A stretch of DNA of 64,000 nucleotides. Source: Methanomassiliicoccales archaeon. Lineage in GTDB: Archaea; Thermoplasmatota; Thermoplasmata; RBG-16-68-12; SOIM01. A model generated the notes under the pieces. It ran no database searches. It worked only from the letters and a program-made list of their open reading frames with translations, and was not told where the DNA came from. The DNA lies in NCBI GenBank assembly GCA_030593885.1, contig JAUVGH010000001.1:40463-104462 (forward strand). Direction: 5' to 3'. A program made the position numbers and the translations under genes. Shown here piece after piece: positions 27,891 through 57,284 of the stretch (the stretch's first letter is position 1; each line of letters begins with the position of its first letter).

Positions 27891-30800
27891 ATGGGTAGAA
27901 CAAGTGGCCGGCGCCTTCTCGTCTCGGTTCTGAGCTTCTTCATGCTATTCGGCAGTTTCGCCGTGCTCAACTCAGATGAAGTTATTGCCCAAGGAGACGC
28001 CGTATTGGACGTCGGATGCCTAGACGAACCCAAGACCAGGAACATACTCGCTGCAAATGACGTGTGGACCCACAATGTTCTTGATCCAGTTTACGACTCC
28101 GTAACCAAGCCAGATCCCAAGACAGAAGAGGTGAAACCCTACATATTGAAAGGAACGGATGCGGACGGGGACGGCGTTTTCGGTGACAACGAGTACGGAG
28201 TCTTCACGAGCATTCCTGGCAAACCTCTGGAAGTTACGGCCTTCTACGACTTCAACGGCGTCCTGTTCCATGACGGATATCAGGCGACCGTTGAGGATCT
28301 TTTATTCACGTACCACATGGTCGCACTTGACCCAAGGACCATCTCACTGGACGTATTGAAGGACAAGAACAACCTGCCCGGATCGAACTACAGCATCACA
28401 AGATGGCTGCATCTCAATGAGCTGAAAGGGTTCGATCCACTTGACACTCTCAATAATGGGGATTGGGGCATTACGACCAAGGACTACTCTGACCCCGGCT
28501 ACAATACGAGTTTGAGAGCCGCTGTGCATATCAAACAGCAAGCCCCATACTGGGATTTCTTCCGATCTACCCTGTCTCGGACCTTCCTACCCGCCTATCT
28601 CTGGCAGGGAACTGGATGCATCTATGAGAAGGACACCTCAACCTTCAAGTGCGGCATTCACAAGAACAGGGATGGATCCGCCATGGATTCTTTCGGCATT
28701 GCATACGATCCCGATACCGGGAATGGCGTGCCCCAGAGCGACGGCAGGAAGTTCGACTACAGTCTTGCCGAGAGCTGGGACATTCCTGATGAATATGTGA
28801 TCGGAACCGGACCTTTCACATTTGACAGATGGGTGCCAGGACAGTTCGCAAGTCTAGACAGAAACGACGACTATTTCGTTGGCGAATCCTATCTCCACAA
28901 GCCATACATCGAGGGAATGCTCTTCAAGGTGTTCAAGACCACCCAGACAGCCGTCTTCGCCCTCAGGAGCGGGGACATTGACTACATCGCAATGTCGATC
29001 CCACCTGCATTCGTTCCAGAACTTCTCAATGATCACAGCATCAGTATTGTCTCAACGTCACCCAAAGGGTTCTCTTATCTATCTTACAATATGAGAGGTG
29101 AGCCTTTCGGATACCAAGGCGGAGATCCAAGGAATCCTGACGTGGGCAAGAACTTCCGACAGGCTGTTGCCCACCTCATCGACAAGAAGACCATCGTCAC
29201 CAGCCTGCTTCAGAACTACGGTATCGTCGCTGACGGTCCTGTGAGCCCAACGCTGGCCAGATGGTACAACAGCTCACTGCCCCAGCTCCCGTACGACCCA
29301 GGGGCGGCCGACGCTCTTCTTGACACTTATGATGCGTGGGACTCCTCAGACGGTCCATGCACCAACGCTAACCCGAGTGGGTGCAGGACATTCCCGGTGG
29401 TGGGGAACAGCGAGATTGAGATATTGACCCCTAACGCCGACTACGACCCCATCAGGGCTGCCGCAGGTACTCTCATCGCACAAGCAATGAACGAAGCTGG
29501 AATAAACGCCAGATCGGTTCCAACAGCCTTTGGTGAGATCGTAATGAGAATTGACGCGCGAGACTTCCAGATGTTCATCCTCGGATGGAGGATAGGTTCG
29601 GATCCGCCGGACTACTTCCATGCCTTCTTCTACTCAAGGAACGCGGCCCAGGGTCAGAACTATCCCGGATATCAGAGCGACGAGTTCGACGTGCTAAGTC
29701 TTCAGACTCGTCAAGAACTGGACGGGCCCACGCAGGTATCTCTTGTTAAGAAAGCACAAGGTGTTCTAGCCTTCGATAGGCCATATGATGTTCTGTACTT
29801 CAGGACAATCATCGAGGTATACAGATCGGACAGATTTGTCAACTGGACGGTAGGCGCCGCGGGAACCATCTTCAGCTACTGGTCATGGCTGGGCATTCAT
29901 GAACCACCGTCCGACCCCCTTCGAATCACGACTTCAATTCAGACCGATGTGGCGACGGACAGCACAGCTGCTTTCAAAGCAACCGTCACCGACCCCAATG
30001 GGAACGCCCTTTGGGGTGCAACGGTCAGTGTCTATGTTGATCCTTTTTATGGGGAATTCGTGCTTGGTCCTCAGAGGTCGAACCTGGTGAGTGGACAGAC
30101 GGATACGAACGGGGACTTGGTTGTGACCTACGTCCCGCCCACTCTTGCAGCCAACGACACAGCAAGAACAATCTTCGTCTATGCTTGGGCCACTCATCCC
30201 GGACATAATGAATCAAGAAATGCCACAGAGACCATTGTGGTTCATCCAGTTGGCGAGAACTTTCTCTCTTTGTTGATCGATTTGCCCGATGGAGACCTGG
30301 TGCCCGAGGGGAGTTCAGCCTCTATTGAGATTCAGGTTGTTGACCAAGACCAGAACCCGGCCAGTGGTGCGAATGTTTACATTGTTTCAACACCACCGGC
30401 GACGATCAATCCCAGTAACGGGACCACGGACGCAAACGGCTACATCAGTGGCCTGCCGGGCGTTATTTTCTTCTCTCCCAATGTTACCGGTGATACTCAA
30501 CATCTTATATCGATTATCGCCCAGAAGCTAGGCTATGATAGCGCAGTCGAGAGTCTGTTTCTGACCGTCAAGGACAATCGAAAGCCAAATGTGTCAATTA
30601 CTTCCATCTCCCCAGGTCAGGAACTATCTGGAGAGGTTAACATCACAGGGGATGCCAGCGATGAGGATGGGGATGACGATATCATCAGGGTTGAAGTTCG
30701 AATCGATGGTGGCAGTTGGCAGAACGCAACCGGCACATCACGCTGGAGTTTCTTGTTGGACACGTCAGATCTCTCCAACGGAGACCACATGCTCAGCTTC

Positions 30801-31079
30801 AGGGCGTACGATGGCACTGACTATTCGACAACTGTTGAGGTTCCAATCACCGTGGACAATGAAGTTCTTACAGATTGTCCAGATGGGACCGAGTGTGGAG
30901 GAATATTGCCTATCATTGGTTGGCTGGGCTTGATCGCTGTCATCGCAGTCCTGTTGGTCGCTTCTGTTATTTTGTTGGCAAAGGCAAGAAAGAAAACCGA
31001 ATCCGGTGAATCAACTGAAGAGCCAGAATCTTCCGAAGAACCCACAATCTCAACCCCAGAGGAAGAGCACAAGGATTAA
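27891..31079 (+). CDS. ABC transporter substrate-binding protein (family 5, Opp/Dpp type) with C-terminal Ig-like domains and TM anchor; paralog 1
   Basis: 1062 aa. Signal/anchor LLVSVLSFFMLFGSFAV. SBP_bac_5-like core (..FHDGYQATVEDLLFTY.., ..GTGPFTFDRWVPGQ.., ..DFQMFILGWRIGSDPPDYF..). About 300 aa of beta-rich C-terminal domains, then TM ILPIIGWLGLIAVIAVLLVASVILL and an acidic tail. Confidence 0.88.
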   Translation: MGRTSGRRLLVSVLSFFMLFGSFAVLNSDEVIAQGDAVLDVGCLDEPKTRNILAANDVWTHNVLDPVYDSVTKPDPKTEEVKPYILKGTDADGDGVFGDNEYGVFTSIPGKPLEVTAFYDFNGVLFHDGYQATVEDLLFTYHMVALDPRTISLDVLKDKNNLPGSNYSITRWLHLNELKGFDPLDTLNNGDWGITTKDYSDPGYNTSLRAAVHIKQQAPYWDFFRSTLSRTFLPAYLWQGTGCIYEKDTSTFKCGIHKNRDGSAMDSFGIAYDPDTGNGVPQSDGRKFDYSLAESWDIPDEYVIGTGPFTFDRWVPGQFASLDRNDDYFVGESYLHKPYIEGMLFKVFKTTQTAVFALRSGDIDYIAMSIPPAFVPELLNDHSISIVSTSPKGFSYLSYNMRGEPFGYQGGDPRNPDVGKNFRQAVAHLIDKKTIVTSLLQNYGIVADGPVSPTLARWYNSSLPQLPYDPGAADALLDTYDAWDSSDGPCTNANPSGCRTFPVVGNSEIEILTPNADYDPIRAAAGTLIAQAMNEAGINARSVPTAFGEIVMRIDARDFQMFILGWRIGSDPPDYFHAFFYSRNAAQGQNYPGYQSDEFDVLSLQTRQELDGPTQVSLVKKAQGVLAFDRPYDVLYFRTIIEVYRSDRFVNWTVGAAGTIFSYWSWLGIHEPPSDPLRITTSIQTDVATDSTAAFKATVTDPNGNALWGATVSVYVDPFYGEFVLGPQRSNLVSGQTDTNGDLVVTYVPPTLAANDTARTIFVYAWATHPGHNESRNATETIVVHPVGENFLSLLIDLPDGDLVPEGSSASIEIQVVDQDQNPASGANVYIVSTPPATINPSNGTTDANGYISGLPGVIFFSPNVTGDTQHLISIIAQKLGYDSAVESLFLTVKDNRKPNVSITSISPGQELSGEVNITGDASDEDGDDDIIRVEVRIDGGSWQNATGTSRWSFLLDTSDLSNGDHMLSFRAYDGTDYSTTVEVPITVDNEVLTDCPDGTECGGILPIIGWLGLIAVIAVLLVASVILLAKARKKTESGESTEEPESSEEPTISTPEEEHKD
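28245..28432 (+). repeat. Near-identical 188-nt tract shared with the paralogous binding-protein gene (partner at 32821-33008)
   Basis: Hand alignment gives 2 mismatches in 188 nt (28304 a/g, 28422 c/t). The flanks on both sides are clearly more diverged. Confidence 0.85.
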
Positions 31080-31150: not shown

Positions 31151-32182
31151 ATGCGACCCAACGCGGTCATTCTCACTGTTAGTGTTGCCTTTGTTCTAGC
31201 CCTCTCGCTTTTCTTCATTCCTCAAGAATCCAGTGCTTCCTCGCCTGGATTCATCTCACCCCCCACTCCCGACATCGCCGGAAGCCCGCAAGATTTCTAC
31301 ACCGTGACATTCCTCTCCAATGGTGGAACATTTGAGGCTGGATCGGTCTTCTATCTTGAAGGCCAGGTAGATGGGAACTCCGTTGATGGGCTGCACATAA
31401 CAGTCCTGATGGAAGATCCCTACGGGGCTCAGTATCGCAATCTGACGCGGGCTGAATCCGACGGTATCTGGGTAGCCATGTTCCAGCCGGCCGAAGACGT
31501 TGGTGGCAACTTCACCGTTACCGCCTCTGCCGATGCGATCGATGTGAGCAAGGAGGACGACACCATACAGATTGACGTCGTTGTTCCGCCGCCAGAGGAA
31601 GAAGAAGAGGGAATTCCAGTCGTTTACTTCCAGCTGGGAGCGCTTTTTGCCGCCTTCGCGTCCATGGCCGTCGCGAGCACCGAATCCGCCGGCTTCTCGC
31701 TCTTCAACATCTTCGCCTTCCCGTTGTACTCGAGGATAAAGAAGGACGAGGTCCTGGACCATTTCGTTCGGGGTCAGATCTACGGATACATCGTTTCCAA
31801 CCCGGGCAAGCATTACAATTCGATCAGGCAGAAATTGCAGGTCACCAACGGTACCTTATCCTATCATCTGCGGACATTGGAGGTCCAGGGATTCATCAAA
31901 TCAAGGAAGGAGAGCATCTACAGGCGTTTCTATCCCATAGAGATGAAGTTCCCTCGTGACAAGGGTGTCAAACTGAGCGACATGCAGATAACCATTCTTG
32001 CGGCTCTTAGGCGCAGGCCGGCCCCGACCCAGAAAGACATCGCGTCTGATCTCGGAATAAGTCAGCAGGTGGCCAGTTACAACCTCAGGATACTGACCCA
32101 AAAGGGATTCGTGCTGGTTCGCAAAGAGGGCCGCAAGAGGATCTACTACCAGGATGATTCGGGATCGCCGACCGGATTGTGA
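31151..32182 (+). CDS. Membrane-tethered transcription regulator: extracellular domain, TM segment and two cytoplasmic wHTH domains
   Basis: N-terminal signal/anchor ILTVSVAFVLALSLFFI. About 170-aa beta-rich segment, an acidic linker PPPEEEEEG, and a hydrophobic segment VVYFQLGALFAAFASMAVA..FSLFNIFAFPL. Two ArsR/MarR-like wHTH units follow: GQIYGYIVSNPGKHYNSIRQKLQVTNGTLSYHLRTLEVQGFIKSRKE and ITILAALRRRPAPTQKDIASDLGISQQVASYNLRILTQKGFVLVRKEG. Confidence 0.75.
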   Translation: MRPNAVILTVSVAFVLALSLFFIPQESSASSPGFISPPTPDIAGSPQDFYTVTFLSNGGTFEAGSVFYLEGQVDGNSVDGLHITVLMEDPYGAQYRNLTRAESDGIWVAMFQPAEDVGGNFTVTASADAIDVSKEDDTIQIDVVVPPPEEEEEGIPVVYFQLGALFAAFASMAVASTESAGFSLFNIFAFPLYSRIKKDEVLDHFVRGQIYGYIVSNPGKHYNSIRQKLQVTNGTLSYHLRTLEVQGFIKSRKESIYRRFYPIEMKFPRDKGVKLSDMQITILAALRRRPAPTQKDIASDLGISQQVASYNLRILTQKGFVLVRKEGRKRIYYQDDSGSPTGL

Positions 32183-32336: not shown

Positions 32337-32451
32337 CCCACCCAGCATAAACAGAAACAGTATATTCAGTTGACAAGAAAAAGTATTTAATGTCAACCCA
32401 ATATGCCACTCTCACTCTGCCTTCTTGGCGGTCAGGAGAGGAGGAATGGAA

Positions 32452-35298
32452 ATGGGCGGAAGAAACAGCCGAAGAGGAATAGCCTCTATTGTGAGCGTAA
32501 TACTTGTGTTCTCCATGTTGCTCGGTTCGTTTCCCCTGTATGTCGCTGGGGACAACACGAGAGGGGACGAAGACGTGATTCTGAGAATAGGAGCACAGGA
32601 CGAACCCAAGACCAGGAACATACTCGCATCTGGCGACGTATGGACCCAGAACGTTCTGGGACCGGTATACGATTCTGTGACCCAGATGAATCCGGAGACC
32701 GAGGAATTGATGCCGTACATCCTGAAAGGTACTGATCTCAACGGAGACGGGATATTCCAGGACAATGAGTACGGGGAATTCAGAAGCATAGAGGGAAAAC
32801 CTAAGGAAGTGACTGCCTTTTACGACTTCAACGGCGTCCTGTTCCATGACGGATATCAGGCGACCGTTGAGGATCTTTTGTTCACGTACCACATGGTCGC
32901 ACTTGACCCAAGGACCATCTCACTGGACGTATTGAAGGACAAGAACAACCTGCCCGGATCGAACTACAGCATCACAAGATGGCTGCATCTCAATGAGTTG
33001 AAAGGGTTTGACACACTTGATGCTCCCATTGGCGATTGGGGCATTACGACCAGGGACTACACTGACCCCAGCTACGACACGAGCCTGAGAGCTGCCGTTC
33101 ATTTCAAGCAACAGGCCCCTTATGCCAACTTCTACAGAGCCACAATGTCTTGGAGTGCATATCCCAGACATATCTGGGAGGGTACTGGTTGCATCTATGA
33201 GAAGGACACCTCGACCTTCAAGTGTGACATTCACAAGAACCCAGACGGATCCGCCATGGACTCCTTCGGCATTGCCTATGATTCCCTTACCGGGAACGGC
33301 GTGCCTGACACCGATTCCAGGAAGTTCGAGTACAGTCTGGCCGAGAGCTGGGACATTCCGGACGAATACGTGATTGGAACCGGCGCGTTCATGTTCGACA
33401 AGTGGGTCCCCGGTCAGTTCTCCAGTCTTACCAGGTTCGAAGATTTCTACACAGGTGAAGGATACATCCACAAGCCGTACATCAACGGGATGCTCTTCAA
33501 GGTGTTCAAGACCACCCAGACAGCGGTCTTCGCCCTCAGGAGCGGGGACGTTGACTACATCGCATGGTCGATCCCACCTGCATTCGTTCCCGAACTGCTC
33601 AACGACGCCAACATCGGCATCACAAGCACGGCCGAAAAGGGTTTCTTCTATCTATCTTACAATATGAGAGAGGAGCCTTTCGGATATCCAGGTGGAGATA
33701 CGACGAACGACCTGGGCAAGAACTTCCGACAGGCCGTTGCGCACTTGATCGACAAGAAGACCATTGTCACGAGCTTGTTGCAGAACTATGGCATCGTCGC
33801 TGACGGTCCTGTGAGCCCGACATTGGCCCGTTGGTACAATAGCTCATTGCCGCAGTTCCCGTTCGATCCAGTCAAAGCTGACACGTTGCTGGATACGTAC
33901 GATCCTTGGGATTCTTCGGACGGTCCATGCAACAAAGATAACCCCGGCCGATGTAGGTCCTTCCCTGTCATTGGGAACAGCCAGATCGAGATTTTGACTC
34001 CGAATGCGGAGTATGATCCAATCAGGGCTGCTGCCGGAACTCTAATCGCGCAGGCAATGAACGATGCGGGGATAAATGCCTACTCTGAGCCTACCGCCTT
34101 CGGTAAGATCGTTACGAGAATTGACGCACGAGACTTCCAGATGTTCATTCTCGGATGGAGGATAGGTTCGGATCCACCGGATTACTTCCACGCTTTCTTC
34201 TACTCAAGGAATGCGGCTCAGGGTCAGAACTATCCTGGATATCAAAGCGACGAGTTCGACCAGCTGATACTTGATGCTAGAGAAGAGCTCAATCCACAGA
34301 AACAAGTCGACCTCATCAAGACGGCACAGGGTGTGCTGGCCTATGACCGACCATACGACGTTCTGTACTTCAGGACCAACATCGAGGCCTACAGGTCTGA
34401 CAAGTTCACCAACTGGACGGTAGGCGCCGCGGGAACCATCTTCAGCTACTGGTCATGGCTGGGCATTCACCGGCCTCCGCCGGATCCGTTGCGAATCACA
34501 TCATCGATCCAGACCGCTGTCAAGACGGACAAGACGGCCAAGCTCATTGCGACCGTTAGGGAACCGGACGGCGATGTTCTTCAAGGGGCCACAGTTGAGG
34601 CATACGTTGCTTCCACGGATGGAGATTTCGTGCTGGGAACGACAGTATCGAACTATGTAACTGGCACCACCGACTTGAATGGGCAATTCAAGGTGACCTA
34701 TCAACCGCCGATCTTAGCGAAAAACGACACTCAACGAACGATGTTCATTTATACAAAGGCAACGCACGTGGACTATCCTGAATCAAGGAACGCTACGATT
34801 ACAATCGTAGTGCATCCGCCCGGCGGTAAGTTCCTATCCATGCTGGTGAACTTGTTGGGTGGAGATTTGGTGGAAGAAGGAAGACCGACGCTGATGAGCG
34901 TCAAGATCACCGATCAGGACGAGAATCCGGTCTATGGCGCGAGCGTTGTCATCAGTTCAGATCCTCCGGCGGAGATCACTCCCAGCAGTGGAACCACCGA
35001 TACGAACGGTTTCATCAACAGCGTCGAGAACATCGAATTCATAGCTCCGGCAGTGGATGACAATCAAGACCATTTGATCACCATTACCGCCACTTTAGCC
35101 GACCACGAACCTACTGACAGGAACTTCACCATGACCGTGGCGGCCGAGCCCCCCCCTCCGGGCGGTGACTTCCCCTGGCTCATTGTCGGAGCGGGGATTG
35201 CCGTTGCTGGCGTGGTGGCGGGCATTGTCGCCTTCATGATGATGAAAGGTGGAAAGAGGAAGAGAAGGCGCAAGATCCAGAAGCTGAAGGAAGGGTAG
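32452..35298 (+). CDS. ABC transporter substrate-binding protein (family 5) with C-terminal Ig-like domains and TM anchor; paralog 2
   Basis: Collinear with paralog 1. ATG 32452 gives MGGRNSRRGIASIV.., matching MGRTSGRRLLVSV.. of paralog 1, and follows GGAGAGGAGG. The track uses TTG 32425. C-terminal TM WLIVGAGIAVAGVVAGIVAFMMM plus a K/R tail. Confidence 0.88.
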   Translation: MGGRNSRRGIASIVSVILVFSMLLGSFPLYVAGDNTRGDEDVILRIGAQDEPKTRNILASGDVWTQNVLGPVYDSVTQMNPETEELMPYILKGTDLNGDGIFQDNEYGEFRSIEGKPKEVTAFYDFNGVLFHDGYQATVEDLLFTYHMVALDPRTISLDVLKDKNNLPGSNYSITRWLHLNELKGFDTLDAPIGDWGITTRDYTDPSYDTSLRAAVHFKQQAPYANFYRATMSWSAYPRHIWEGTGCIYEKDTSTFKCDIHKNPDGSAMDSFGIAYDSLTGNGVPDTDSRKFEYSLAESWDIPDEYVIGTGAFMFDKWVPGQFSSLTRFEDFYTGEGYIHKPYINGMLFKVFKTTQTAVFALRSGDVDYIAWSIPPAFVPELLNDANIGITSTAEKGFFYLSYNMREEPFGYPGGDTTNDLGKNFRQAVAHLIDKKTIVTSLLQNYGIVADGPVSPTLARWYNSSLPQFPFDPVKADTLLDTYDPWDSSDGPCNKDNPGRCRSFPVIGNSQIEILTPNAEYDPIRAAAGTLIAQAMNDAGINAYSEPTAFGKIVTRIDARDFQMFILGWRIGSDPPDYFHAFFYSRNAAQGQNYPGYQSDEFDQLILDAREELNPQKQVDLIKTAQGVLAYDRPYDVLYFRTNIEAYRSDKFTNWTVGAAGTIFSYWSWLGIHRPPPDPLRITSSIQTAVKTDKTAKLIATVREPDGDVLQGATVEAYVASTDGDFVLGTTVSNYVTGTTDLNGQFKVTYQPPILAKNDTQRTMFIYTKATHVDYPESRNATITIVVHPPGGKFLSMLVNLLGGDLVEEGRPTLMSVKITDQDENPVYGASVVISSDPPAEITPSSGTTDTNGFINSVENIEFIAPAVDDNQDHLITITATLADHEPTDRNFTMTVAAEPPPPGGDFPWLIVGAGIAVAGVVAGIVAFMMMKGGKRKRRRKIQKLKEG
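32821..33008 (+). repeat. Partner of the near-identical 188-nt tract at 28245-28432
   Basis: See 28245-28432. Confidence 0.85.
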
Positions 35299-35337: not shown

Positions 35338-37068
35338 TTGAGGTTGCGCACATTCCTCTTCAAGAGAGCCATACACACCATAATCACACTGCTGGTCGTA
35401 CTTGTTCTGCTCTTCATAATCTTCCGACTGATGCCCGGAGACCCGACAAGGTTCTTCATCGAGCCCGGTCAGACCCAGGATACGCGAGATAGGCTCCTGG
35501 TGAAGTTCGGTTTCAGGCACTGGGTGGACGCCCCTGGCGATTACCGGGAGGCCTCCATATCTGAGGCAGACCTCCCCGGCGCATATCTGATCACAATCAA
35601 CGTGGTAGATGAAGACGGGAACACTGCCGAGCTTTATGCGACCTACAACGTGCGGTGGCAATATGCCTCAATCAAAGACGATCCTCTCCAGGTCCATGGC
35701 TCTGTTGACCCCTTGCTGGTGAACTTCCTTGAAGACGGAGGTTTGGAGTTCTTCAACGAACCCATGGAGAGGCTTGGGACTGCTGTTGTCGGCGACACTG
35801 TAACGGTCTACGCCAACCTCGATGGCTCACCTCCATCCAATGTGGAAGTTCGGGCGAATGTGACCTACATAAGCCCGACCGGAGCGACCGAGGATTTCAT
35901 GCCTGACGTTCTTTTCACTGCATCTGGGCAGAGGTACTCTTCCGGTCCGATAACACCCGACAAGGCCGGCCACTATGATGTAGCCATCACAGCACGGGAT
36001 CTGGACGGAATTGAATCAATGACGATTCATTACGCATTCGCAGCAAACCTTCCGAATTCTCAGCTTCTACCTTTCTCCTTGATCGCCGATGAAGGCGGGA
36101 TCTTCACCTACCCGGACGAATTCAACGTGGCCTCGGGAAGGGTCAGCATAGCCATTGTGTCCGATGACGCCAAGATCCTGAACACCAACAAAACGGTCGT
36201 CGCAACTGTCGTTCGACCTGACGCAAAGGTGAATGTCGTTGATTTGTATCACCCCGAGGTAACCGCCGAGAGGAACATCTTCGAACAGTTCTGGGTGTAC
36301 TTCACGTCCATGTTGCAGCTGGACTTTGGCAAGTCGTTTTTCTCTCAAAGACCGGTGTGGACCGAAATCCAGGAGAAGGCCCCGCCCACCATCTTGCTCT
36401 TCGGCTCTGCACTGATACTTCAGGCCGTGTTCGGCGTACTGATAGGCGTCCTCCTTGCCTGGAGAAGGGGGACAAGGATGGAGCTGAGTGCCGTCGTTAT
36501 CTCTCTTTTCTTCTACTCGATACCCCTGTTCTGGTTCGGGATTATTCTGATATGGGCCTTCGCTTTCCAGCTGGGCTGGTTCCCGTTCGGAGGCATGGTA
36601 ACCCCGGAGTTAGCGTCTCAAGGATATCCGGACATATGGGCAGAGATTACAGACATAGGCGCTCACATGGTGCTTCCATTAATCACCTTGATGATGGTCG
36701 GTCTCGCTTTCACCATTCTTCTGATGAGGAACTCAATGCTCGAGGTCCTCGGGGAGGATTATATCACCACCGCCAAGGCAAAGGGATTGAGCGAAAGGAA
36801 GGTGATGTACAAACACGCCGGCAGGAACGCGATGCTTCCGGTCGTGACCGTGATTGCGATGTCGGTGGGCAGCGTTGTCAGTGGCGGCGTTCTCACAGAG
36901 ACCATATTCTCCTGGCCGGGCATGGGATTCTACCTCGTCCAATCAACCCTGCAACAGGACTATCCCGCCGTTCAAGGAGTCTTCTTTCTTCTGGCGGTTA
37001 TGACTATTCTTGCTAACGTGGTTGCGGACGTGCTGTACGCCTTTATGGACCCAAGGGTGAGGTTGTAG
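35338..37068 (+). CDS. ABC permease, OppB/DppB type, with a large extracytoplasmic insertion
   Basis: TTG start. OppB-like N-terminus RAIHTIITLLVVLVLLFIIFRLMPGDP. Canonical ..LQLDFGKSFFSQRPVWTEI.. and EAA-loop region (ITTAKAKGLSERKVMYKHAGRNAMLP). About 250 extra residues lie between TM1 and the DFGKS motif. Confidence 0.88.
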   Translation: MRLRTFLFKRAIHTIITLLVVLVLLFIIFRLMPGDPTRFFIEPGQTQDTRDRLLVKFGFRHWVDAPGDYREASISEADLPGAYLITINVVDEDGNTAELYATYNVRWQYASIKDDPLQVHGSVDPLLVNFLEDGGLEFFNEPMERLGTAVVGDTVTVYANLDGSPPSNVEVRANVTYISPTGATEDFMPDVLFTASGQRYSSGPITPDKAGHYDVAITARDLDGIESMTIHYAFAANLPNSQLLPFSLIADEGGIFTYPDEFNVASGRVSIAIVSDDAKILNTNKTVVATVVRPDAKVNVVDLYHPEVTAERNIFEQFWVYFTSMLQLDFGKSFFSQRPVWTEIQEKAPPTILLFGSALILQAVFGVLIGVLLAWRRGTRMELSAVVISLFFYSIPLFWFGIILIWAFAFQLGWFPFGGMVTPELASQGYPDIWAEITDIGAHMVLPLITLMMVGLAFTILLMRNSMLEVLGEDYITTAKAKGLSERKVMYKHAGRNAMLPVVTVIAMSVGSVVSGGVLTETIFSWPGMGFYLVQSTLQQDYPAVQGVFFLLAVMTILANVVADVLYAFMDPRVRL

Positions 37069-40000
37069 ATGGTAGATACTGCCAGGCTCAAAGAGAAGAT
37101 CCGAGCGTATCGGAAGGTCTTCAAGCAGAACTGGGACCTGTTCAAGGCAAGCAAGATCGGCGTGATAGGAGTCATCATCGTGTTCTTCTTCCTCGGAATG
37201 GCCATCATCGCTCCTTTCATGAACCTCAGGGACCCCATCAACTGGAGGGCACCAGATGCAGACATAATCCGGGTGAACTCTTGGTGGGGCGTTGGAAGGA
37301 ACGTTTCACAAACACAATGGAATGCGGGCGAACCTATCAACAAGACCGTGTCCTTCCGGGTAAAACCCGCAGGCGCCCAGGCGCTGGAATCTGACAGGGT
37401 GTACTTCACTTCAGGGAATCGATTATTCTCTTTAAAACCGGGCGATGCTGGATCCTATTGGACCGATTGGGACACTCCTGAGAACTTTGATTTCAGGCAC
37501 ATCACCGATGCCCACTTTTCCACTGACGTCGTGGTGGCCAACTTTGGGAACCAGTACGATTCGGCCGAGGTGGATTACCTCCTCGGAGTGGGTACAAACG
37601 ACGGTTACATCTACATAATAGAGGACTACGATGGCGGCCCGACCATTCTCAAGGAATCGACTCCGTCGGTGGCGAACGGACGCGTGTACTACGAGCAGCT
37701 GGACAGTGCGATAACATCTACGGCCCTCTACAGCAATCCGGGGTCTGGAAGGAGCCCCGTGGAGAAGTACTTCTTTGGGACCGAGGGCGGATGGCTTTAT
37801 GCATATTCGGTGACCAAGTTCGACAATGAGAATTGGGTTTTCGGCTCGGGAAACTGGTCCACGATGCCTCTGGGAGAAGGTGAGATCAGGCCGTCCCCGA
37901 GGACCAACTTCAGCATGGTCTACGATTCCATCAATGACAAGATGGTGCTGTTCGGAGGTAACGATGGGCTCCTCAACGATGAGACCTGGATATACGATCC
38001 GGTGACACAGGTTTGGACCAGGATTGAGACAGACTGGCATCCCTCGGCCAGATACGGTCACTCCATGGCCTTTGATTCCAGCACCGAGAAGGTCGTACTG
38101 TTCGGAGGCGTCATCGACAACTCGGCCAATCCATGGAGCAATGAAACCTGGATTTTCGACGTGGATGCAAGCAATTGGACCCAGGTGAGCATCCCACCAG
38201 GTCTTTGGGGAAGGGCCTTCTCCGCAATGGCCTTCGACGAGGGTACTGGTATGACGGTGATGTACGGTGGAGATCATTGGTCCAATGAGACATGGACTTA
38301 TTCTGACGGACTGGGATGGATAAACAGAACGTCGGGCATTTTCCCCACTGGCAGATATGGACACGCAATGACATATGACAGCATCAGCGGTCGAGTTGTC
38401 ATGGTCGGTGGAAGCGACGGCGGCAACGAGACCTGGACTTACAATTCATCTACTCACGTATGGTCAGACCTGATCCCGCCCGCTGGACCGTCCCCGAGGA
38501 TGTTCCACGACATTGTTTTCGACGTTGCCAACAACCGCACTCTGATGTTCGGTGGGGATACTGGTTGGGATGAGACCTGGGCCTTTGATGGTGGTGCCTG
38601 GACCGAAATCACTCCTATATCAAACCTCTCGGGAAGGACCGGGCACTCGATGGTCTACGACTCGAACAGGAGTGAGATATTTCTCTTCGGCGGCGACGAC
38701 CGGACCTTCAGCATGCTGTGGTACCGGCAGTTGAGCACAGAGGATCCCATATTGATGGCGGGTTTCCCTCTTAGCACACCCACAGACCCCAATTACTCCC
38801 CATCACTGAACGCCAATGGGACCATGATCTTTGTCAACGATGGAGGACTTCATGCGATCAACGCATTCGACGGTACTGATGCATGGGGCACACCATCCCT
38901 TGACATGGGTCCGGAATGGACCAACACCCCGGTAGTGGCTGTCCCAGGTCTGATAGGAACCGATTTCACGGAGGCCGTTTACGCGACGACCGATCACGGC
39001 TGGATATATGCCCGGTATGCGGACAACGGCAGTTCCCTTGCATCTTGGGAGGATCGGGGACTGGACGACAATATGACCGCCACCGATGGAGGAATCCCGG
39101 TAATGATCGACCTGGTGACGTTCGACGGTGGCGTCCTCACAACACCGGACTTCTTTGGGGACCTCATTTATCTGGGCTCGAGCTCAGGTCATCTTTACGC
39201 GATCCGCAGGGACCCGTTGCCAGGCTTTCCCGCTGGGTCCACGGTTTGGATCTACTCCGATAGGATTTTTATCAACGCCGGCTTCGCCTACACCGGGGGT
39301 GTGAGATTCGTAAGAGAATCGCGGTTACTGTTCGCCGTTGGCTATGAGGGATATACCACTCCAGGGAATTTGGATGATGATATAGGGACTCTGTTCATCC
39401 TCGGAGAGGACGGTAGCCTCTCCTGGAGGAAGACCGTCGATGGCAGGATCGGAGGTACGCCCACGATCTGGAAGGACAATGTGGGAACCCATCCGACACC
39501 CAGCGTCTGGTTCGGAACGAGTAAGGGCATCGCAAACGCATATTCTTCCACTGGCGAGAACATGGCGCCTCTTCCGCCAGGATGTTACGATTCCGGTAAT
39601 TGCTACACACTTGGGACGGACTCACAAGGCAGGGACATCTTCAGCCAGTTGATGTGGGGGTCGCAGGTCGCTCTCACGGTCGGACTTCTGGCAGCTGGAG
39701 GCTCCATAGGTATCGGCACGATCATTGGTTTGGTATCCGGATACTCGGGCGGTAGGATCGATTCGGTTCTGATGAGGTTCACTGATGTCATTCTGGTTCT
39801 ACCCGGTTTGCCCTTCCTCATCATTCTCGCCGCAGTGCTCGGTCCGAGCTACTGGAACATCATCTTCGTGCTGACCATCATTGGGTGGCCAGGTACTGCA
39901 AGGGTCATTCGTTCGGAGGTCCTTTCTTTGAAGGAAAGGCCTTTCATCGATTCCGCAAGGGTCACGGGTGCAAGCAACATCCGCATAATGTTCAAACATC

Positions 40001-40275
40001 TGGCACCCAACGTGATGCCCCTGGCCTTCCTGTACATGACTCTCGCGGTGAGCGGATCCATCCTCGCGGAGGCGGCGCTGAGCTTCCTTGGTCTTGGAGA
40101 TGTGAACACCGCCAGCTGGGGCCTGATGCTCCAGGCGGTCCAGACCGAGAACGTGCTTGCAGCGTGGTGGTGGTTGATGCCGCCCGGTATCGCTATCACA
40201 TTCATCTCATTGGCATTCTATCTCATCGGCAGGGCATTCGAACAGATCGTCAACCCGCGTCTGAGGAAGAGGTGA
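37069..40275 (+). CDS. ABC permease, OppC/DppC type, with a ~790-aa Kelch/PQQ-like beta-propeller ectodomain inserted after TM1
   Basis: ATG immediately follows the OppB stop. TM1 is IGVIGVIIVFFFLGMAIIAPF. Six Kelch-like blades (e.g. RYGHSMAFDSSTEKVVLFGG, GRYGHAMTYDSISGRVVMVGG, GRTGHSMVYDSNRSEIFLFGG). The canonical OppC core starts at LGTDSQGRDIFSQLMWG (39610 onward), with the EAA region SARVTGASNIRIMFKHLAPNV. Confidence 0.88.
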   Translation: MVDTARLKEKIRAYRKVFKQNWDLFKASKIGVIGVIIVFFFLGMAIIAPFMNLRDPINWRAPDADIIRVNSWWGVGRNVSQTQWNAGEPINKTVSFRVKPAGAQALESDRVYFTSGNRLFSLKPGDAGSYWTDWDTPENFDFRHITDAHFSTDVVVANFGNQYDSAEVDYLLGVGTNDGYIYIIEDYDGGPTILKESTPSVANGRVYYEQLDSAITSTALYSNPGSGRSPVEKYFFGTEGGWLYAYSVTKFDNENWVFGSGNWSTMPLGEGEIRPSPRTNFSMVYDSINDKMVLFGGNDGLLNDETWIYDPVTQVWTRIETDWHPSARYGHSMAFDSSTEKVVLFGGVIDNSANPWSNETWIFDVDASNWTQVSIPPGLWGRAFSAMAFDEGTGMTVMYGGDHWSNETWTYSDGLGWINRTSGIFPTGRYGHAMTYDSISGRVVMVGGSDGGNETWTYNSSTHVWSDLIPPAGPSPRMFHDIVFDVANNRTLMFGGDTGWDETWAFDGGAWTEITPISNLSGRTGHSMVYDSNRSEIFLFGGDDRTFSMLWYRQLSTEDPILMAGFPLSTPTDPNYSPSLNANGTMIFVNDGGLHAINAFDGTDAWGTPSLDMGPEWTNTPVVAVPGLIGTDFTEAVYATTDHGWIYARYADNGSSLASWEDRGLDDNMTATDGGIPVMIDLVTFDGGVLTTPDFFGDLIYLGSSSGHLYAIRRDPLPGFPAGSTVWIYSDRIFINAGFAYTGGVRFVRESRLLFAVGYEGYTTPGNLDDDIGTLFILGEDGSLSWRKTVDGRIGGTPTIWKDNVGTHPTPSVWFGTSKGIANAYSSTGENMAPLPPGCYDSGNCYTLGTDSQGRDIFSQLMWGSQVALTVGLLAAGGSIGIGTIIGLVSGYSGGRIDSVLMRFTDVILVLPGLPFLIILAAVLGPSYWNIIFVLTIIGWPGTARVIRSEVLSLKERPFIDSARVTGASNIRIMFKHLAPNVMPLAFLYMTLAVSGSILAEAALSFLGLGDVNTASWGLMLQAVQTENVLAAWWWLMPPGIAITFISLAFYLIGRAFEQIVNPRLRKR

Positions 40276-40284
40276 TCAGAGAAT

Positions 40285-41568
40285 ATGGTGATGCTGGACA
40301 TAAGGAACCTGAGAGTTTACTTCGAGATCCTGAAGGGCAAGGTGAAGGCCGTTGACGGAGTCTCGTTCCAGTTGGACCGAGGTGAGACGATGGGCCTGGT
40401 CGGCGAGAGCGGGTGCGGGAAGACGACCACAGCATTCGCAATCACCCGGCTGCTCCCCTTCAACGGACATGTCGTCGGTGGAGAGATATTGTTCAACGAC
40501 ATGGTGCTGGCAAGGGCGGACATGGCCACCGAGATGCTGGAGCTCTTGGAGCGCGAGAGATGGCTGCCCCGGGTCGAGACCCTCTTCGAGAGAAGGCAGA
40601 ACGCAATGCAGGTCCTCAAGGAGAAGGGACTCGGCGAGATGCCGGGGGAATCAGAGATCCTCCTTGCCGAGGAAGAGATTTTCCTGGAGGAGGTCGGTGA
40701 TATCCTAGCTATTAAGGATAGGGTTGCACCTGAAGAGCTAAAAGAGATGCTCTCTAAGGCCGGCAAGGCCGAGACAACCGGGTTCTTCGCCGATAGGAGA
40801 AAGAGGAAGATAGAGAAGGAGATTGAGGCAAAAATGACCGCCATCAGGTGGTCAGAGATTTCCATGATTTTCCAGAGTGCTATGAATGCGTTCAATCCTG
40901 TTTACCGCGTCGGTGATCAGATCGCGGAAGCACTTCTCACTCACGAGGACATGTCAAAGGACGAGGCCCACCAGAAGGTACTTGAACTGTTCGATCTCGT
41001 TGGACTTAAGCCCGACAGGGTCACTGGATACCCGCACGAGTTCAGCGGAGGAATGAGGCAAAGAGCCATCATCGCCATGGCACTGGCACTGAACCCACAG
41101 TTGATAATCGCCGATGAGCCCACAACTGCTCTGGACGTAATTATGCAGGACCGAATACTCGCCGAGATACGCGACCTGCAGAAGGAGATGCACATGGCCA
41201 TGATAATCATCACTCACGACATATCCGTGGTCGCGGAGGTCTCTGAGAAGATCGCAATCATGTACGGCGGGAAGTTGTTCGAGCAGGGGGACATAGTCTC
41301 AATATTCGAGAACCCGGCCAATCCTTACACCATCGGCCTCACTGGCGCCTTCCCGAGCATCAAGGGGAAGAAGAAGAGACTGAAGTCTATACCAGGTTCC
41401 CCTCCGGACCTTGCGAATCCCCCGCTTGGATGCGTGTTCCACCCCCGGTGCAAGCTGGCGCAGGACATCTGCAAGGAGAAGATGCCCCCGACCATCGAGG
41501 TCGCAAAGAATCACAGATCATATTGTCATTTCGCAGAGGAGATATACACTGGAAAGATGAAGGTCTAG
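40285..41568 (+). CDS. ABC ATPase, OppD/DppD type, with a ~100-aa helical insertion
   Basis: Walker A GESGCGKTT, signature FSGGMRQR, Walker B LIIADEPTTALD, and the oligopeptide-ATPase C-terminal motif CVFHPRC..C. The extra charged segment is ARADMATEMLELLERERW..RRKRKIEKEIEAKMTA. Confidence 0.88.
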   Translation: MVMLDIRNLRVYFEILKGKVKAVDGVSFQLDRGETMGLVGESGCGKTTTAFAITRLLPFNGHVVGGEILFNDMVLARADMATEMLELLERERWLPRVETLFERRQNAMQVLKEKGLGEMPGESEILLAEEEIFLEEVGDILAIKDRVAPEELKEMLSKAGKAETTGFFADRRKRKIEKEIEAKMTAIRWSEISMIFQSAMNAFNPVYRVGDQIAEALLTHEDMSKDEAHQKVLELFDLVGLKPDRVTGYPHEFSGGMRQRAIIAMALALNPQLIIADEPTTALDVIMQDRILAEIRDLQKEMHMAMIIITHDISVVAEVSEKIAIMYGGKLFEQGDIVSIFENPANPYTIGLTGAFPSIKGKKKRLKSIPGSPPDLANPPLGCVFHPRCKLAQDICKEKMPPTIEVAKNHRSYCHFAEEIYTGKMKV

Positions 41569-41570
41569 AC

Positions 41571-42773
41571 ATGGAAGCAGAAGTCACGGATGCTACAACC
41601 GAGGAAGTCGAGAAGGAACCCGGAGTAGTCTGGGAGGTGAAGAACCTCACCAAACTGTTCCCCATAAAGGCAGGCTTCATCGCATCCCTTATGGGCAAGG
41701 AGGTGCACGTCCACGCGGTCAACGACGTGGAATTCAAGATCTATGACAGGGAGATCCTTGGCATCGTGGGTGAGAGCGGGTGCGGCAAGACGACGTGCGG
41801 AAGGCTTTTGGTCCGTCTCGAGACACCTACAAGGGGCACCATGCAGTTCAACGGTCAGGAGATCGGCGGGCTCAAGGGGAGGGAGCTGAAGAGATTCAGA
41901 AGGAGCGTCCAGATGATCTTCCAGGACCCGTATGAATCCCTCAACCCCAGGCTCTCTGTCTTTGCCACCATCGCAGAGCCTCTAATAGTCCACGGCGTCG
42001 GCGACACCATCGAGGATAGGGAGGAGCTCGTTCGGAAGGCGCTTGAATATGCGGAGCTCAAACCCCCGGAGGAGTTCATGTACAGGTTTCCGCACGAACT
42101 CAGCGGCGGCCAGAGACAGCGCGTTGCCATTGCCCGAACACTGGTGCTGAGGCCCCAGTTCATAGTCGCGGACGAACCGGTCAGCATGCTTGATGTTTCC
42201 ATCAGGGCCGGGATCATGAACCTCATGCTCAACCTTCGGGAGGAGTACGGTATCCCCTTCATGTTCATCAGCCACGACGTCTCGGTGACGAGATACATGA
42301 GCGACAGGATAGGCGTCATGTATCTGGGAGATTTCGCGGAACTGGCCGGGTCAGAAGATATCATCAAGAACCCGATGCATCCGTATACCGAGGCGCTCCT
42401 ATCCGCCGTTCCCGTTCCCGACCCGACCGCAAAGCATGGTAGAGTGAAGATCAAAGGAGACCTGCCCAGTCCTATCAACCTGCCACCCGGCTGCACCTTC
42501 CATCCGAGATGCTTGTACAAGAAGGACATCTGCAAGTCCCAGGCCCCTGAGTTCAAGGAGGTCGAACCGGGCCATTTCGTTCACTGTCACTTTGCCGGTG
42601 AGCTGCCCATTGTGAAGCCTGACGACGAGTACGTTACCGAGGAGTTATGCAAGTACTGCAACGCCACCATAAAGAAAGGCATGGCCTCGGTACAGCATCC
42701 TTGTGGAGCCAACTATCATGAGGAATGTGCGGACCGGGTGAAGGCATGCACGGTCTGCGGTAAGAAATTCTAG
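41571..42773 (+). CDS. ABC ATPase, OppF/DppF type, with a C-terminal Cys/His-rich extension
   Basis: ATG 41571 lies 2 nt after the OppD stop; the track start at 41430 overlaps OppD. Walker A GESGCGKTT, LSGGQRQR, FIVADEPVSMLD, CTFHPRC..C..HFVHC. The extra C-terminus is CKYC..x13..C..H..EC..x6..CTVC. Confidence 0.88.
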   Translation: MEAEVTDATTEEVEKEPGVVWEVKNLTKLFPIKAGFIASLMGKEVHVHAVNDVEFKIYDREILGIVGESGCGKTTCGRLLVRLETPTRGTMQFNGQEIGGLKGRELKRFRRSVQMIFQDPYESLNPRLSVFATIAEPLIVHGVGDTIEDREELVRKALEYAELKPPEEFMYRFPHELSGGQRQRVAIARTLVLRPQFIVADEPVSMLDVSIRAGIMNLMLNLREEYGIPFMFISHDVSVTRYMSDRIGVMYLGDFAELAGSEDIIKNPMHPYTEALLSAVPVPDPTAKHGRVKIKGDLPSPINLPPGCTFHPRCLYKKDICKSQAPEFKEVEPGHFVHCHFAGELPIVKPDDEYVTEELCKYCNATIKKGMASVQHPCGANYHEECADRVKACTVCGKKF

Positions 42774-42781
42774 GTGTTCGC

Positions 42782-43348
42782 GTGAACAAACTCGTTCGTT
42801 TAATCGGCATCTCCTTCATAATCATCTCATTGCTCTCATTCGGGCTTCTATACGTCACTTCGGTCAACTACCTGAACTACACCGAGACCGCTTCAGAGAT
42901 CCCGCAGAACATAGAGATATCCGAGGTCCGCATTCCGCTCATCACTGACGAGTTGCAGGACCAGATCGTGGAGGTCCTTTTTACAGTCTCTAATCCGTCC
43001 AGTCTGACCATTTACGTTACCAGCATCGAGGCATATGTCTACATGGACAACTATTCCGATATCCGCCCCTTCCTGGAGAAGATGAATGAGATACTCGTTG
43101 GCATAGGCCAGTTCAGTTTCCAGAAGGCCGATTCCCACATCATCCGTCCGGGAGAGTCGATGACCATTCCCGTCCGCATGACTGTCAGCGGTGGCTCAGT
43201 CTTCATGTCGATTCTCAACACCACTTCTGACGGGAAATACTATCCATATGTCTTCGGGACCATGTGGTACACATTTGAGTACATAGATCTGATCGAAGTA
43301 GTAAGAGGAGTGTCATTCCTTGGAAGAGCTGGAGTCGAGCCCTATTGA
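42782..43348 (+). CDS. TM-anchored beta-sandwich protein, possibly LEA14/WHy-like; function unknown
   Basis: GTG start. N-terminal TM LIGISFIIISLLSFGLLYV, then a beta-rich body (VEVLFTVSNPSSLTIYVTSIEAYVYMDN). The family call is tentative. Confidence 0.5.
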   Translation: MNKLVRLIGISFIIISLLSFGLLYVTSVNYLNYTETASEIPQNIEISEVRIPLITDELQDQIVEVLFTVSNPSSLTIYVTSIEAYVYMDNYSDIRPFLEKMNEILVGIGQFSFQKADSHIIRPGESMTIPVRMTVSGGSVFMSILNTTSDGKYYPYVFGTMWYTFEYIDLIEVVRGVSFLGRAGVEPY

Positions 43349-43382
43349 ATTGAAACCCGTTAAGAGGTCCTACGTTGTCCTC

Positions 43383-43922
43383 ATGGTCCTGGGTTGGACC
43401 CTAGCTTCAGCTGTGATCATAACGTACTTCTTCTTCTCCACCTTCTTCCCAGAGTTCTCGCCCATCGACCCGGGAGATGCCGGCCTTGCCTTCCTTGTCG
43501 TTCCAGGTTTCTGCGGCTTCGTTACAGGGGCGATGCTCAGCGAGTTTGATGAGAAGGTCGCCGTTTACGGCTCGTTCATCCTTACTGGCATGGCAATTGG
43601 CCTGATATTCGTCGTACTGTTCCTCCCTCTGATCACTGGCACTGTCCAGGATATGACCCAGCTGGGATCCACTGACGAGGAGAGGCAATCGATCGTCCTT
43701 TCCTCAATCTTCCTCCTTCCAATATCCCTCATTGGCACCATTGCAGGGAAGGCATTCGGAGAGGTGTACCTGCCTAGCGAAGAGGAGAAGATCACGAGAG
43801 AGCTTCTGATCAAGGACACCAAGAGATGGCATGACATGCTCCAGTCCTACGTTCGCGAGAAGATGAGGAAAGATGAAGAAGAGATCAAGGAGCCAGAAGA
43901 GGAACCCAAGGAAGAGGACTAG
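43383..43922 (+). CDS. Small polytopic membrane protein with a charged C-terminal tail, function unknown
   Basis: About four hydrophobic helices, then ..KMRKDEEEIKEPEEEPKEED. The start is uncertain: ATG 43383, TTG 43350 or TTG 43320. Confidence 0.5.
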   Translation: MVLGWTLASAVIITYFFFSTFFPEFSPIDPGDAGLAFLVVPGFCGFVTGAMLSEFDEKVAVYGSFILTGMAIGLIFVVLFLPLITGTVQDMTQLGSTDEERQSIVLSSIFLLPISLIGTIAGKAFGEVYLPSEEEKITRELLIKDTKRWHDMLQSYVREKMRKDEEEIKEPEEEPKEED

Positions 43923-55753: not shown

Positions 55754-55754
55754 A

Positions 55755-57281: not shown

Positions 57282-57284
57282 TAA

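Follow-up and report, generated by a model that had tools for sequence, protein, structure and literature searches.

In textbook ATP-binding cassette (ABC) importers, the permeases are compact membrane proteins and the substrate is captured by separate binding proteins. Here we analyse a permease gene with a very large outer loop. The gene lies at positions 37069..40275 (forward strand) of a 64,000-nucleotide stretch of contig JAUVGH010000001.1 from an uncultured Thermoplasmata archaeon; this whole stretch is called the window in the following. It is gene three of the five in a PepT-type ABC importer operon that encodes a substrate-binding protein (SBP), OppB, OppC, OppD and OppF. The gene product is the OppC-type membrane subunit of a PepT-family (Opp/Dpp/Nik) importer.

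The closest described systems are DppBCDF and OppBCDF of E. coli and OppABCD of M. tuberculosis. Their subunit C chains (8z1w_B, 8z21_B, 8j5r_C) have the same BPD_transp_1 and EAA core as the window OppC, with Foldseek TM-scores of 0.69-0.71 and 31-38% identity over ~225-240 residues. The operon logic is also the same, with the genes B, C, D and F and a family-5 SBP. The difference lies in the outer part. The known OppC/DppC chains have 273-289 residues in total, and thus the loop between their transmembrane helices 1 and 2 (TM1 and TM2) is short, whereas the corresponding loop of the window OppC alone has 794 residues and contains two propellers.

A folded extracytoplasmic domain in a permease loop of a type I importer is known from MalF of MalFGK2, where the P2 loop lies at the SBP-docking face. 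P2 is an immunoglobulin (Ig)-like domain of ~180 residues, which is located between other helices and in a different permease family. The window OppC likewise has a folded insert in an outer loop, but this insert is a 794-residue double propeller, and any contact to an SBP is one that we infer.

Both propellers resemble described folds. The outer propeller, which we call the host, shares the eight-blade PQQ-motif fold with BamB, YxaL of Bacillus and 3HXJ and is apparently non-enzymatic. In contrast to them, it is neither a free lipoprotein nor a secreted protein but forms a permease loop of an archaeal ABC importer, it occurs in an organism without the BAM machinery, and it carries a second propeller in its blade 3. 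This inner propeller, the guest, has the same fold and motifs as six-blade Kelch domains (KLHDC2, LZTR1, Keap1; the bacterial NanM and galactose oxidase type), but it has no BTB/BACK or enzyme context, is extracellular and rich in glycosylation sequons, and is embedded in another propeller.

Beta-propellers that take up a guest domain are known from integrins, where the guest is the alpha I-domain, and from bacterial sialidases with their inserted domains; these guests resemble the Kelch guest in that a domain with adjacent termini sits in a propeller loop and adds ligand-binding capacity (10.1101/2023.11.05.565221; PMC11525138). The window guest differs in that it is itself a propeller, and in its family three unrelated types of guest repeats use the same blade. 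To our knowledge, the integrin and sialidase guests are not propellers (they are vWA-type and lectin-like).

In full-text literature searches we found no OppC with a propeller, no propeller within a propeller and no Kelch permease from Thermoplasmata, where the coverage of subscription journals was incomplete and the absence of reports is not proof. The double-propeller permease is a real and conserved design that is apparently undescribed. New are the combination of parts, their placement in a permease loop and the way in which unrelated guests reuse one blade like a socket.

Architecture of the OppC protein

The protein consists of TM1, the loop of 794 amino acids (aa) and a normal five-helix BPD_transp_1 core. 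Its parts are the following:

37069..40275, + strand: whole gene, an open reading frame (ORF) of 1068 aa plus stop, for an ABC importer permease of the OppC type whose ectodomain is a nested double propeller (Pfam, NCBIfam, AlphaFold2 (AF2))
37069..37152, + strand: cytoplasmic N-terminal helix (residues 1-28) with eight lysines or arginines (charge count; helix 4-26 in AF2)
37153..37221, + strand: TM1 (residues 29-51), probably OppC_N-type (hydropathy 2.95 at residues 30-48; AF2 helix 29-50)
37222..37350, + strand: conserved linker after TM1 (residues 52-94; 'LRDPINWRAPDADII'), 76% mean identity among 14 full-length orthologues
37351..37830, + strand: N-terminal part of the host propeller, blades 1-2 and strands A-C of blade 3 (residues 95-254; strands 95-247; profile matches to 3hxj and BamB; aligns with residues ~90-225 of the Kelch-less permease P0019)
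37831..38709, + strand: guest six-blade Kelch propeller (residues 255-547, 293 aa; Pfam Kelch models, AF2 strands, Foldseek; absent from P0019 and its relatives)
38710..39558, + strand: C-terminal part of the host propeller, strand D of blade 3 ('LWYRQL', residues 549-554) and blades 4-8 (residues 548-830; strands 549-826; PQQ_2 at residues 550-714)
39559..39636, + strand: membrane-proximal stalk (residues 831-856) with C839, C845 and the LGTDSQGRD motif; 88% mean identity
39637..40272, + strand: permease core TM2-TM6 with the EAA coupling helix (residues 857-1068; BPD_transp_1); 95% mean identity

This locus had been described before in a sequence-only reading, which proposed that an OppC-like permease carries six Kelch blades nested inside a PQQ/BamB-like propeller. 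All motif strings that it quoted occur in the translation of the ORF, and the interval that it gave for the insertion (37228-39605) corresponds to residues ~54-846, that is, to the loop between TM1 and LGTDSQGRD. The six-blade Kelch domain and the nested topology were borne out by the profile matches, the order of the predicted strands and the comparison with Kelch-less relatives that we describe below. For the outer propeller, the PQQ/BamB-like fold stands, but the seven blades that had been listed do not, as the strand pattern and the BamB-length matches give eight.

To assess the fold, we used an AF2 model of the full protein that was calculated on a 31-sequence family alignment (mean predicted local distance difference test (pLDDT) 81.5, predicted TM-score 0.72, ectodomain mostly >85). 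The models were read as strand order and confidence; blade closure, guest orientation and contacts between domains are thus inferred, and not taken from coordinates or predicted aligned errors. The elements follow each other as helix 4-26, TM1 29-50, outer strands 95-247, Kelch 255-540, outer strands 549-826 and membrane helices 857-1067.

The Kelch region comprises 24 regularly spaced strands between residues 255 and 540 (pLDDT mostly >85), and these fall between strands 242-247 and 549-554 of the outer propeller. Pfam Kelch models cover residues ~252-560 and score far above their curated cut-offs, with PF24681 at E 6.7e-35 (120.8 bits, cut-off 50) and Kelch_3 at E 4.8e-29 (100.3 bits, cut-off 22); Kelch_6, Kelch_2, Kelch_4 and Kelch_1 are also above cut-off. 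When the model was compared to the PDB with Foldseek, the six-blade Kelch domains of LZTR1, KLHDC2 and Keap1 and the designed SAKe6 were matched at TM-scores of 0.70-0.79; tandem double-propeller proteins were also matched, with low TM-scores. A search of a viral fold library returned generic Kelch and WD matches only.

From the strand order, the Kelch ring would close in a 2+2 manner, with strands 255-259 and 262-266 pairing with strands 527-531 and 536-540. The first two and the last two strands would then be halves of one closing blade, so that the guest chain enters and leaves at one point and can plug into a tight turn of the host, which remains undisturbed.

The host propeller is less easily recognized in a single sequence. 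PQQ_2 matches the window protein weakly at residues 550-714 (E 4.6e-5, 23.6 bits, below the cut-off of 27.6). A profile was built from the Kelch-deleted ectodomains of five family members. Among natural propellers, it matches the archaeal PQQ-like 3hxj at E 3e-12 and BamB at about 4e-4; matches to designer propellers of the Cake series and their relatives go down to E 7e-36. Metagenomic proteins annotated as BamB match it at E 1e-10.

Natural relatives without the guest confirm the nesting. The homologue search yielded Kelch-less permeases of 750-768 aa (P0019, P0123-P0130, P0136), which contain PQQ_2/PQQ_3 and BPD_transp_1. Their operons have the same layout: OppB (~545 aa) and OppC are accompanied by a long OppD and by OppF, and genes for small proteins lie downstream. 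In the AF2 model of P0019 (pLDDT 79), blade 3 contains a simple hairpin, in which strand C (216-221) is followed by a five-residue turn and strand D (227-232). The ectodomain of P0019 matches the whole of BamB at TM-scores of 0.72-0.77 over ~465 columns (Foldseek), followed by YxaL (0.64-0.67) and the quinoprotein PedH (0.45-0.47).

The junctions were mapped by explicitly deleting the guest residues and realigning the remainder to P0019. Without residues 255-547, the window protein aligns with P0019 from end to end at 47% identity, the largest gap being 10, and the residue before the Kelch junction maps to P0019 residue 225, within the C-D turn of blade 3. The same holds for all guest-deleted proteins, which align end to end with P0019 at 46-65% identity and with a largest gap of <=14. 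As P0019 matches a whole BamB and the guest-deleted proteins align over their full length, the host is a complete propeller, predicted to have eight blades, and the Kelch domain is a true domain-in-domain insertion. The six-blade Kelch propeller is thus spliced into the hairpin turn between strands C and D of host blade 3.

The host belongs to the PQQ-motif/BamB-like fold family and is neither BamB nor a quinoprotein. BamB proper was rejected as the domain is a loop of an archaeal permease and not a lipoprotein partner of BamA, so that the resemblance is one of fold only. We also rejected a quinoprotein enzyme: there is no PF01011 match in the Pfam scan of the window protein and there are no vicinal cysteines, the target-normalised TM-scores favour BamB over PedH, and the quinohemoprotein alcohol dehydrogenase 1kv9 reaches only E 0.007 with the host profile. 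The host propeller appears to be non-enzymatic.

In the membrane part, BPD_transp_1 (PF00528) covers residues 883-1067 (Pfam, E 9.6e-29), and Foldseek matched the AF2 model to DppC 8z1w_B in the PDB (TM-score 0.69, 38% identity). OppC_N (PF12911) is found at residues 19-52 slightly under its cut-off (E 2.4e-4, 21.4 bits, cut-off 23.9); the orthologue P0003 has a precomputed PF12911 match. Among the NCBIfam models, the best match is Opp4C (E 5.7e-69, 232.5 bits, cut-off 350), and every equivalog (OppC, DppC, NikC etc.) is under its cut-off. P56, D65 and W73 of the linker are near-invariant across the family. The two stalk cysteines C839 and C845 are the only cysteines of the whole protein, and the LGTDSQGRD motif occupies residues 848-857.

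The sequence-only reading had considered that the insertion might map to the cytoplasmic side. We observed eight lysines or arginines in the 28 residues before TM1, and the C-terminus of the protein reads RLRKR. In the AF2 model, three membrane helices lie between the large loop and the EAA coupling helix (958-965). The EAA helix is cytoplasmic, as it contacts the ATPase, and with three helices in between the 794-aa loop is thus outside the cell. Helix parity from the EAA helix and the positive-inside rule therefore both place the loop extracellularly. Furthermore, all 17 N-glycosylation sequons (NxS/T) of the protein fall in the loop, where 7.5 +/- 2.4 sequons are expected by shuffling and 0.0002 of the shuffles reach 17. 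The ectodomain is probably N-glycosylated, as suggested by these motifs for an archaeal surface domain.

The Kelch guest contains 11 of the 17 sequons. Three of these read 'NETW', a string that recurs at the third blade strand, and the Kelch repeat consensus thus includes a glycosylation sequon. Among the face loops of the Kelch propeller, those of the top face are more conserved, which is a mild signal. As these loops hold the structural GG and R-x-GH motifs, we draw no conclusion on a binding site from it.

Conservation, history and other guests of the family

The gene has 14 full-length orthologue clusters with 61-93% identity and lengths of 1066-1085 aa, which come from JGI, ENA, NCBI and Logan assemblies. 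The operon and its flanking genes are syntenic in two GTDB representatives, Thermoplasmata archaeon RS_5_45 and 'Methanomassiliicoccales' archaeon CSMAG_404. A chimeric assembly, which the sequence-only reading had named as a possible source of error, was rejected on the basis of these orthologues, the syntenic loci of independent metagenome-assembled genomes (MAGs) and a collinear paralogue in the window. More generally, one could suspect an artefact, be it a chimera, a mis-joined ORF or a single irregular propeller that was over-read as two. Apart from the PQQ_2 score under the Pfam cut-off, no support for this was found, and the same orthologues from four sources, the independent syntenic operons, the paralogue, the two distinct fold matches and the natural Kelch-less variants argue against it. 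We thus consider an artefact extremely improbable.

The family is rare. When 1.84 billion cluster representatives were searched exhaustively with residues 549-845 (phmmer), only 15 proteins reached E<=1e-10, and a scan of GTDB genomes with the host profile found only four archaeal loci. Matches of the host profile in Gaiellaceae (E 4e-6) and Aestuariivivens (E 9e-5) were rejected as generic PQQ-like proteins that are not family members.

Conservation decreases from the membrane outwards. The mean identity among the 14 orthologues is 95% in the membrane core, 88% in the stalk, 69-70% in the host and 60% in the Kelch guest. Such a gradient is expected for a fixed pedestal with a distal head that evolves more freely.

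Survey of the homologues revealed OppC proteins with the insertion, Kelch-less forms and forms with other guests. To reconstruct the history, we estimated midpoint-rooted neighbour-joining trees on the host columns and on the membrane core, which is a weak method. In these trees, the Kelch permeases form one clade with the free-standing Kelch proteins as sister group, and the Kelch-less forms branch deeply and are paraphyletic. The most parsimonious reading of the sequences is that permeases with the host alone are older and more diverse, that the Kelch domain entered once into an ancestral host-only permease, and that a partial duplication later lost the permease core. Jointly, we hold the nested-propeller architecture and this insertion history with high confidence.

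Other guests were found by a Pfam scan of the matches from the exhaustive search. P0156 (1052 aa; locus L011, 1896-5054) has matches to Glyco_hydro_32N and Glyco_hydro_130 at residues 222-478. Its guest contains five YRMYY-type repeats with sequence matches to GH130 enzymes in the PDB (4onz, E 1e-5), and its relatives are labelled as GH43/DUF377 hydrolases. The insert of P0149 (1083 aa) is related to this GH130/DUF377-like domain. P0152 (1183 aa) contains seven IAYYD-type repeats spaced by 46-56 residues (7 x ~48 aa); this repeat guest has neither a PDB sequence match nor a Pfam match.

The junctions of P0156, P0149 and P0152 map to P0019 residues 202-203, which lie in the A-B loop (195-206) of blade 3. 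This site is located 23 residues upstream of the Kelch site in the same blade. P0156 and P0019 stem from one metagenome, and P0156 sits in an OppB-OppC operon. The host part of P0156 shares 65% identity with P0019, and the insertion in P0156 thus happened independently of that of the Kelch domain. Other lineages independently placed different guests in the A-B loop of blade 3. The connections A-B and C-D of an up-down blade with four strands are on the same axial face; by this topology, all guests should emerge on one face of the host.

The paralogue in the window demonstrates that the double propeller also exists apart from the permease:

60618..62999, + strand: free-standing paralogue of 793 aa, with a transmembrane anchor and a BamB-like[Kelch] nested ectodomain but without the permease core (translation, Pfam)

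This protein is collinear with residues 32-827 of OppC (31% identity, E 2e-108), is near-identical to P0034 and matches PQQ_2 with 34.3 bits. It is directly preceded by four Proton_antipo_M genes (nuoL/M/N- or Mrp-like; 53786-60295), and this neighbourhood of free-standing copies recurs in loci L001 and L009. P0153 is also free-standing but more distantly related, and it has CBM56 and fn3 domains in addition.

Operon and neighbouring genes

The operon has the content of a PepT system, as it encodes a permease of the OppB type, a family-5 SBP and two ATPases that carry an oligo_HPY tail. The genes around oppC are the following:

27891..31079, + strand: second family-5 SBP, 1062 aa, with Ig-like domains after the SBP fold (Pfam scan; paralogous to the 957-aa SBP)
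31151..32182, + strand: regulator with a double winged helix-turn-helix between both SBP genes, just upstream of the operon (HTH)
32425..35298, + strand: family-5 SBP, 957 aa, with C-terminal Ig-like domains and a transmembrane anchor at the end (SBP_bac_5, E 1.2e-45)
35338..37068, + strand: partner permease of the OppB type, 576 aa, whose TM1 is followed by a ~260-aa extracellular insert (Pfam, NCBIfam)
40285..41568, + strand: OppD-type ATPase, 427 aa, with a ~120-aa insert that splits ABC_tran (Pfam)
41571..42773, + strand: ATPase of the OppF type, 400 aa when started at ATG 41571, with a C-terminal tail rich in Cys (Pfam)
42782..43348, + strand: small protein of 188 aa with a transmembrane anchor (32% identity, E 6e-27, to a 191-aa protein of the Kelch-less locus L010)

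The closest solved relatives of the 957-aa SBP are AppA and DppA, and its architecture is identical in the Kelch-less operon. The insert of OppB (residues ~45-300) is also retained there, and OppB is 45% identical over its full length. This insert gives faint Ig/PKD-like hints only (InlK_D3, E 5.6e-4) and no PDB sequence match below E 0.1. In OppD, the insert (residues ~60-180) is charged and helical-looking and divides ABC_tran into two matched stretches; the OppD genes of Kelch-less operons are also long (422-462 aa). The ORF of OppF as listed begins at 41430 and overlaps OppD, and ATG 41571 is likely the true start. The OppF tail (42650-42773) contains a CKYC...C...HEEC...CTVC pattern with a weak match to Prok-RING_1 (E 0.005).

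The 188-aa protein, which is conserved downstream of the Kelch-less operon of L010, belongs to no Pfam family and may be an accessory subunit. It is followed, 3' of the operon, by a second small membrane protein of 200 aa (43320-43922, + strand). Further upstream, a 1576-aa protein without any Pfam match (6973-11703, + strand) adjoins a 1764-aa S8 subtilase with PKD and TSP3 repeats (11808-17102, + strand), which lies 15 kb upstream of the operon. Both are predicted to be at the surface or secreted and are consistent with a polymer-degrading lifestyle.

Possible roles of the double propeller

Lastly, we consider what the ectodomain might do. In the mechanism that we prefer, the host ring would be a rigid pedestal that sits firmly above the outer side of the transporter, at the site where the two presumably membrane-tethered SBPs must dock. 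As an exchangeable binding head, the guest would capture a polymer or oligomer as its ligand, most likely a glycan or glycopeptide and possibly a partner protein. By holding this ligand beside the SBPs, it would raise the local supply of substrate.

The pointers to this mechanism are indirect. They comprise the GH130/DUF377-like guests of P0156 and P0149, the CBM56 and fn3 domains of P0153, the guest as the fastest evolving part and the two tethered SBPs. Furthermore, BamB and YxaL are non-enzymatic scaffolds, and PepT-family transporters are known to import not only peptides but also oligosaccharides in archaea and thermophiles. Due to the conservation gradient, the scaffold-type host, the carbohydrate-active guest folds and the relative that bears a CBM, we prefer the pedestal with a binding head. 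The sequence-only reading had suggested a built-in receptor or processing platform; this idea is plausible and gains some indirect support from the hydrolase-like guests of sister lineages.

Several observations weigh against this mechanism. The nearest solved relatives of the 957-aa SBP, AppA and DppA, bind peptides and not sugars. No genes for carbohydrate-active enzymes flank the operon; there is instead the S8 subtilase 15 kb upstream. Kelch domains are generic modules of protein-protein interaction, and a glycan ligand is thus just one option. As the architecture of the SBP and of OppB is the same with and without Kelch, the guest has no obvious co-evolving partner in the operon. The free-standing copies lie beside genes of respiratory complexes and not of transporters, so that the double propeller can work without an importer. 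The strand order of the models does not fix how host and guest are turned towards the pore or towards the docking site of the SBPs, and the GH-like guests were named by profile or repeat matches and not by catalytic residues. Accounting for these points, the mechanism of a pedestal with an exchangeable binding head is a tentative proposal. When architecture, history and mechanism are blended into one estimate, our confidence is moderate.

The ectodomain could also be a docking platform similar to MalF P2 that holds the two tethered SBPs or guides them onto the permease. The Kelch domain would then provide an extra protein contact and bind no substrate. This would fit an insert in the outward TM1-TM2 loop, where the SBPs of type I importers dock, the scaffold fold of the BamB-like host, the two tethered SBPs encoded upstream and the large ectodomain that OppB has as well. 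However, unrelated guests (Kelch, GH130-like and the seven-repeat type) occupy the same blade while the architecture of the SBP and OppB is unchanged, and free-standing copies occur apart from transporter genes. We regard a pure docking role as unlikely.

The free-standing copies and the dense sequons that are restricted to the ectodomain might alternatively indicate a role in the cell envelope. As a spacer or anchor, the ectodomain would link the transporter, and in the form of the free-standing paralogue also other membrane sites, to the glycocalyx or S-layer, or it would serve in adhesion, and it would not deliver substrate directly. The transmembrane-anchored paralogue beside Proton_antipo_M genes in three loci, the fast evolution of the distal domain and the fn3 and CBM56 domains of P0153 are in agreement with such a role. 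It leaves unexplained, however, why the fusion into the permease loop occurs in about 25 lineages with a conserved operon, and why host and linker are well conserved. We give such a role a low probability and keep it, like the docking platform, as a rival of the pedestal with a binding head.

Returning to the pedestal with a binding head, a bolder version is that blade 3 acts as a socket. Depending on whether a Kelch, a GH130/DUF377-like or a seven-repeat guest is plugged in, a different extracellular polymer would be captured, or even trimmed, above the transporter. We consider this version doubtful. If it is true, the permease would contain a built-in device for substrate capture or processing, of which we have seen no description for any ABC importer permease, and the family would be a natural example of recurrent grafting of a propeller into a propeller.

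The family is very small and seemingly undescribed. Its three unrelated guests in two loops that are 23 residues apart form a natural experiment in domain insertion and are a possible template for engineered host-guest propellers. Compared to the compact permeases of textbook importers, the permease here carries a large folded machine on the cell surface, and its partner OppB has an ectodomain as well. If the guest binds or processes substrate, the selection of substrates would gain a further layer at the permease itself, which would bear on how uncultured archaea of sediments and the subsurface scavenge polymers.

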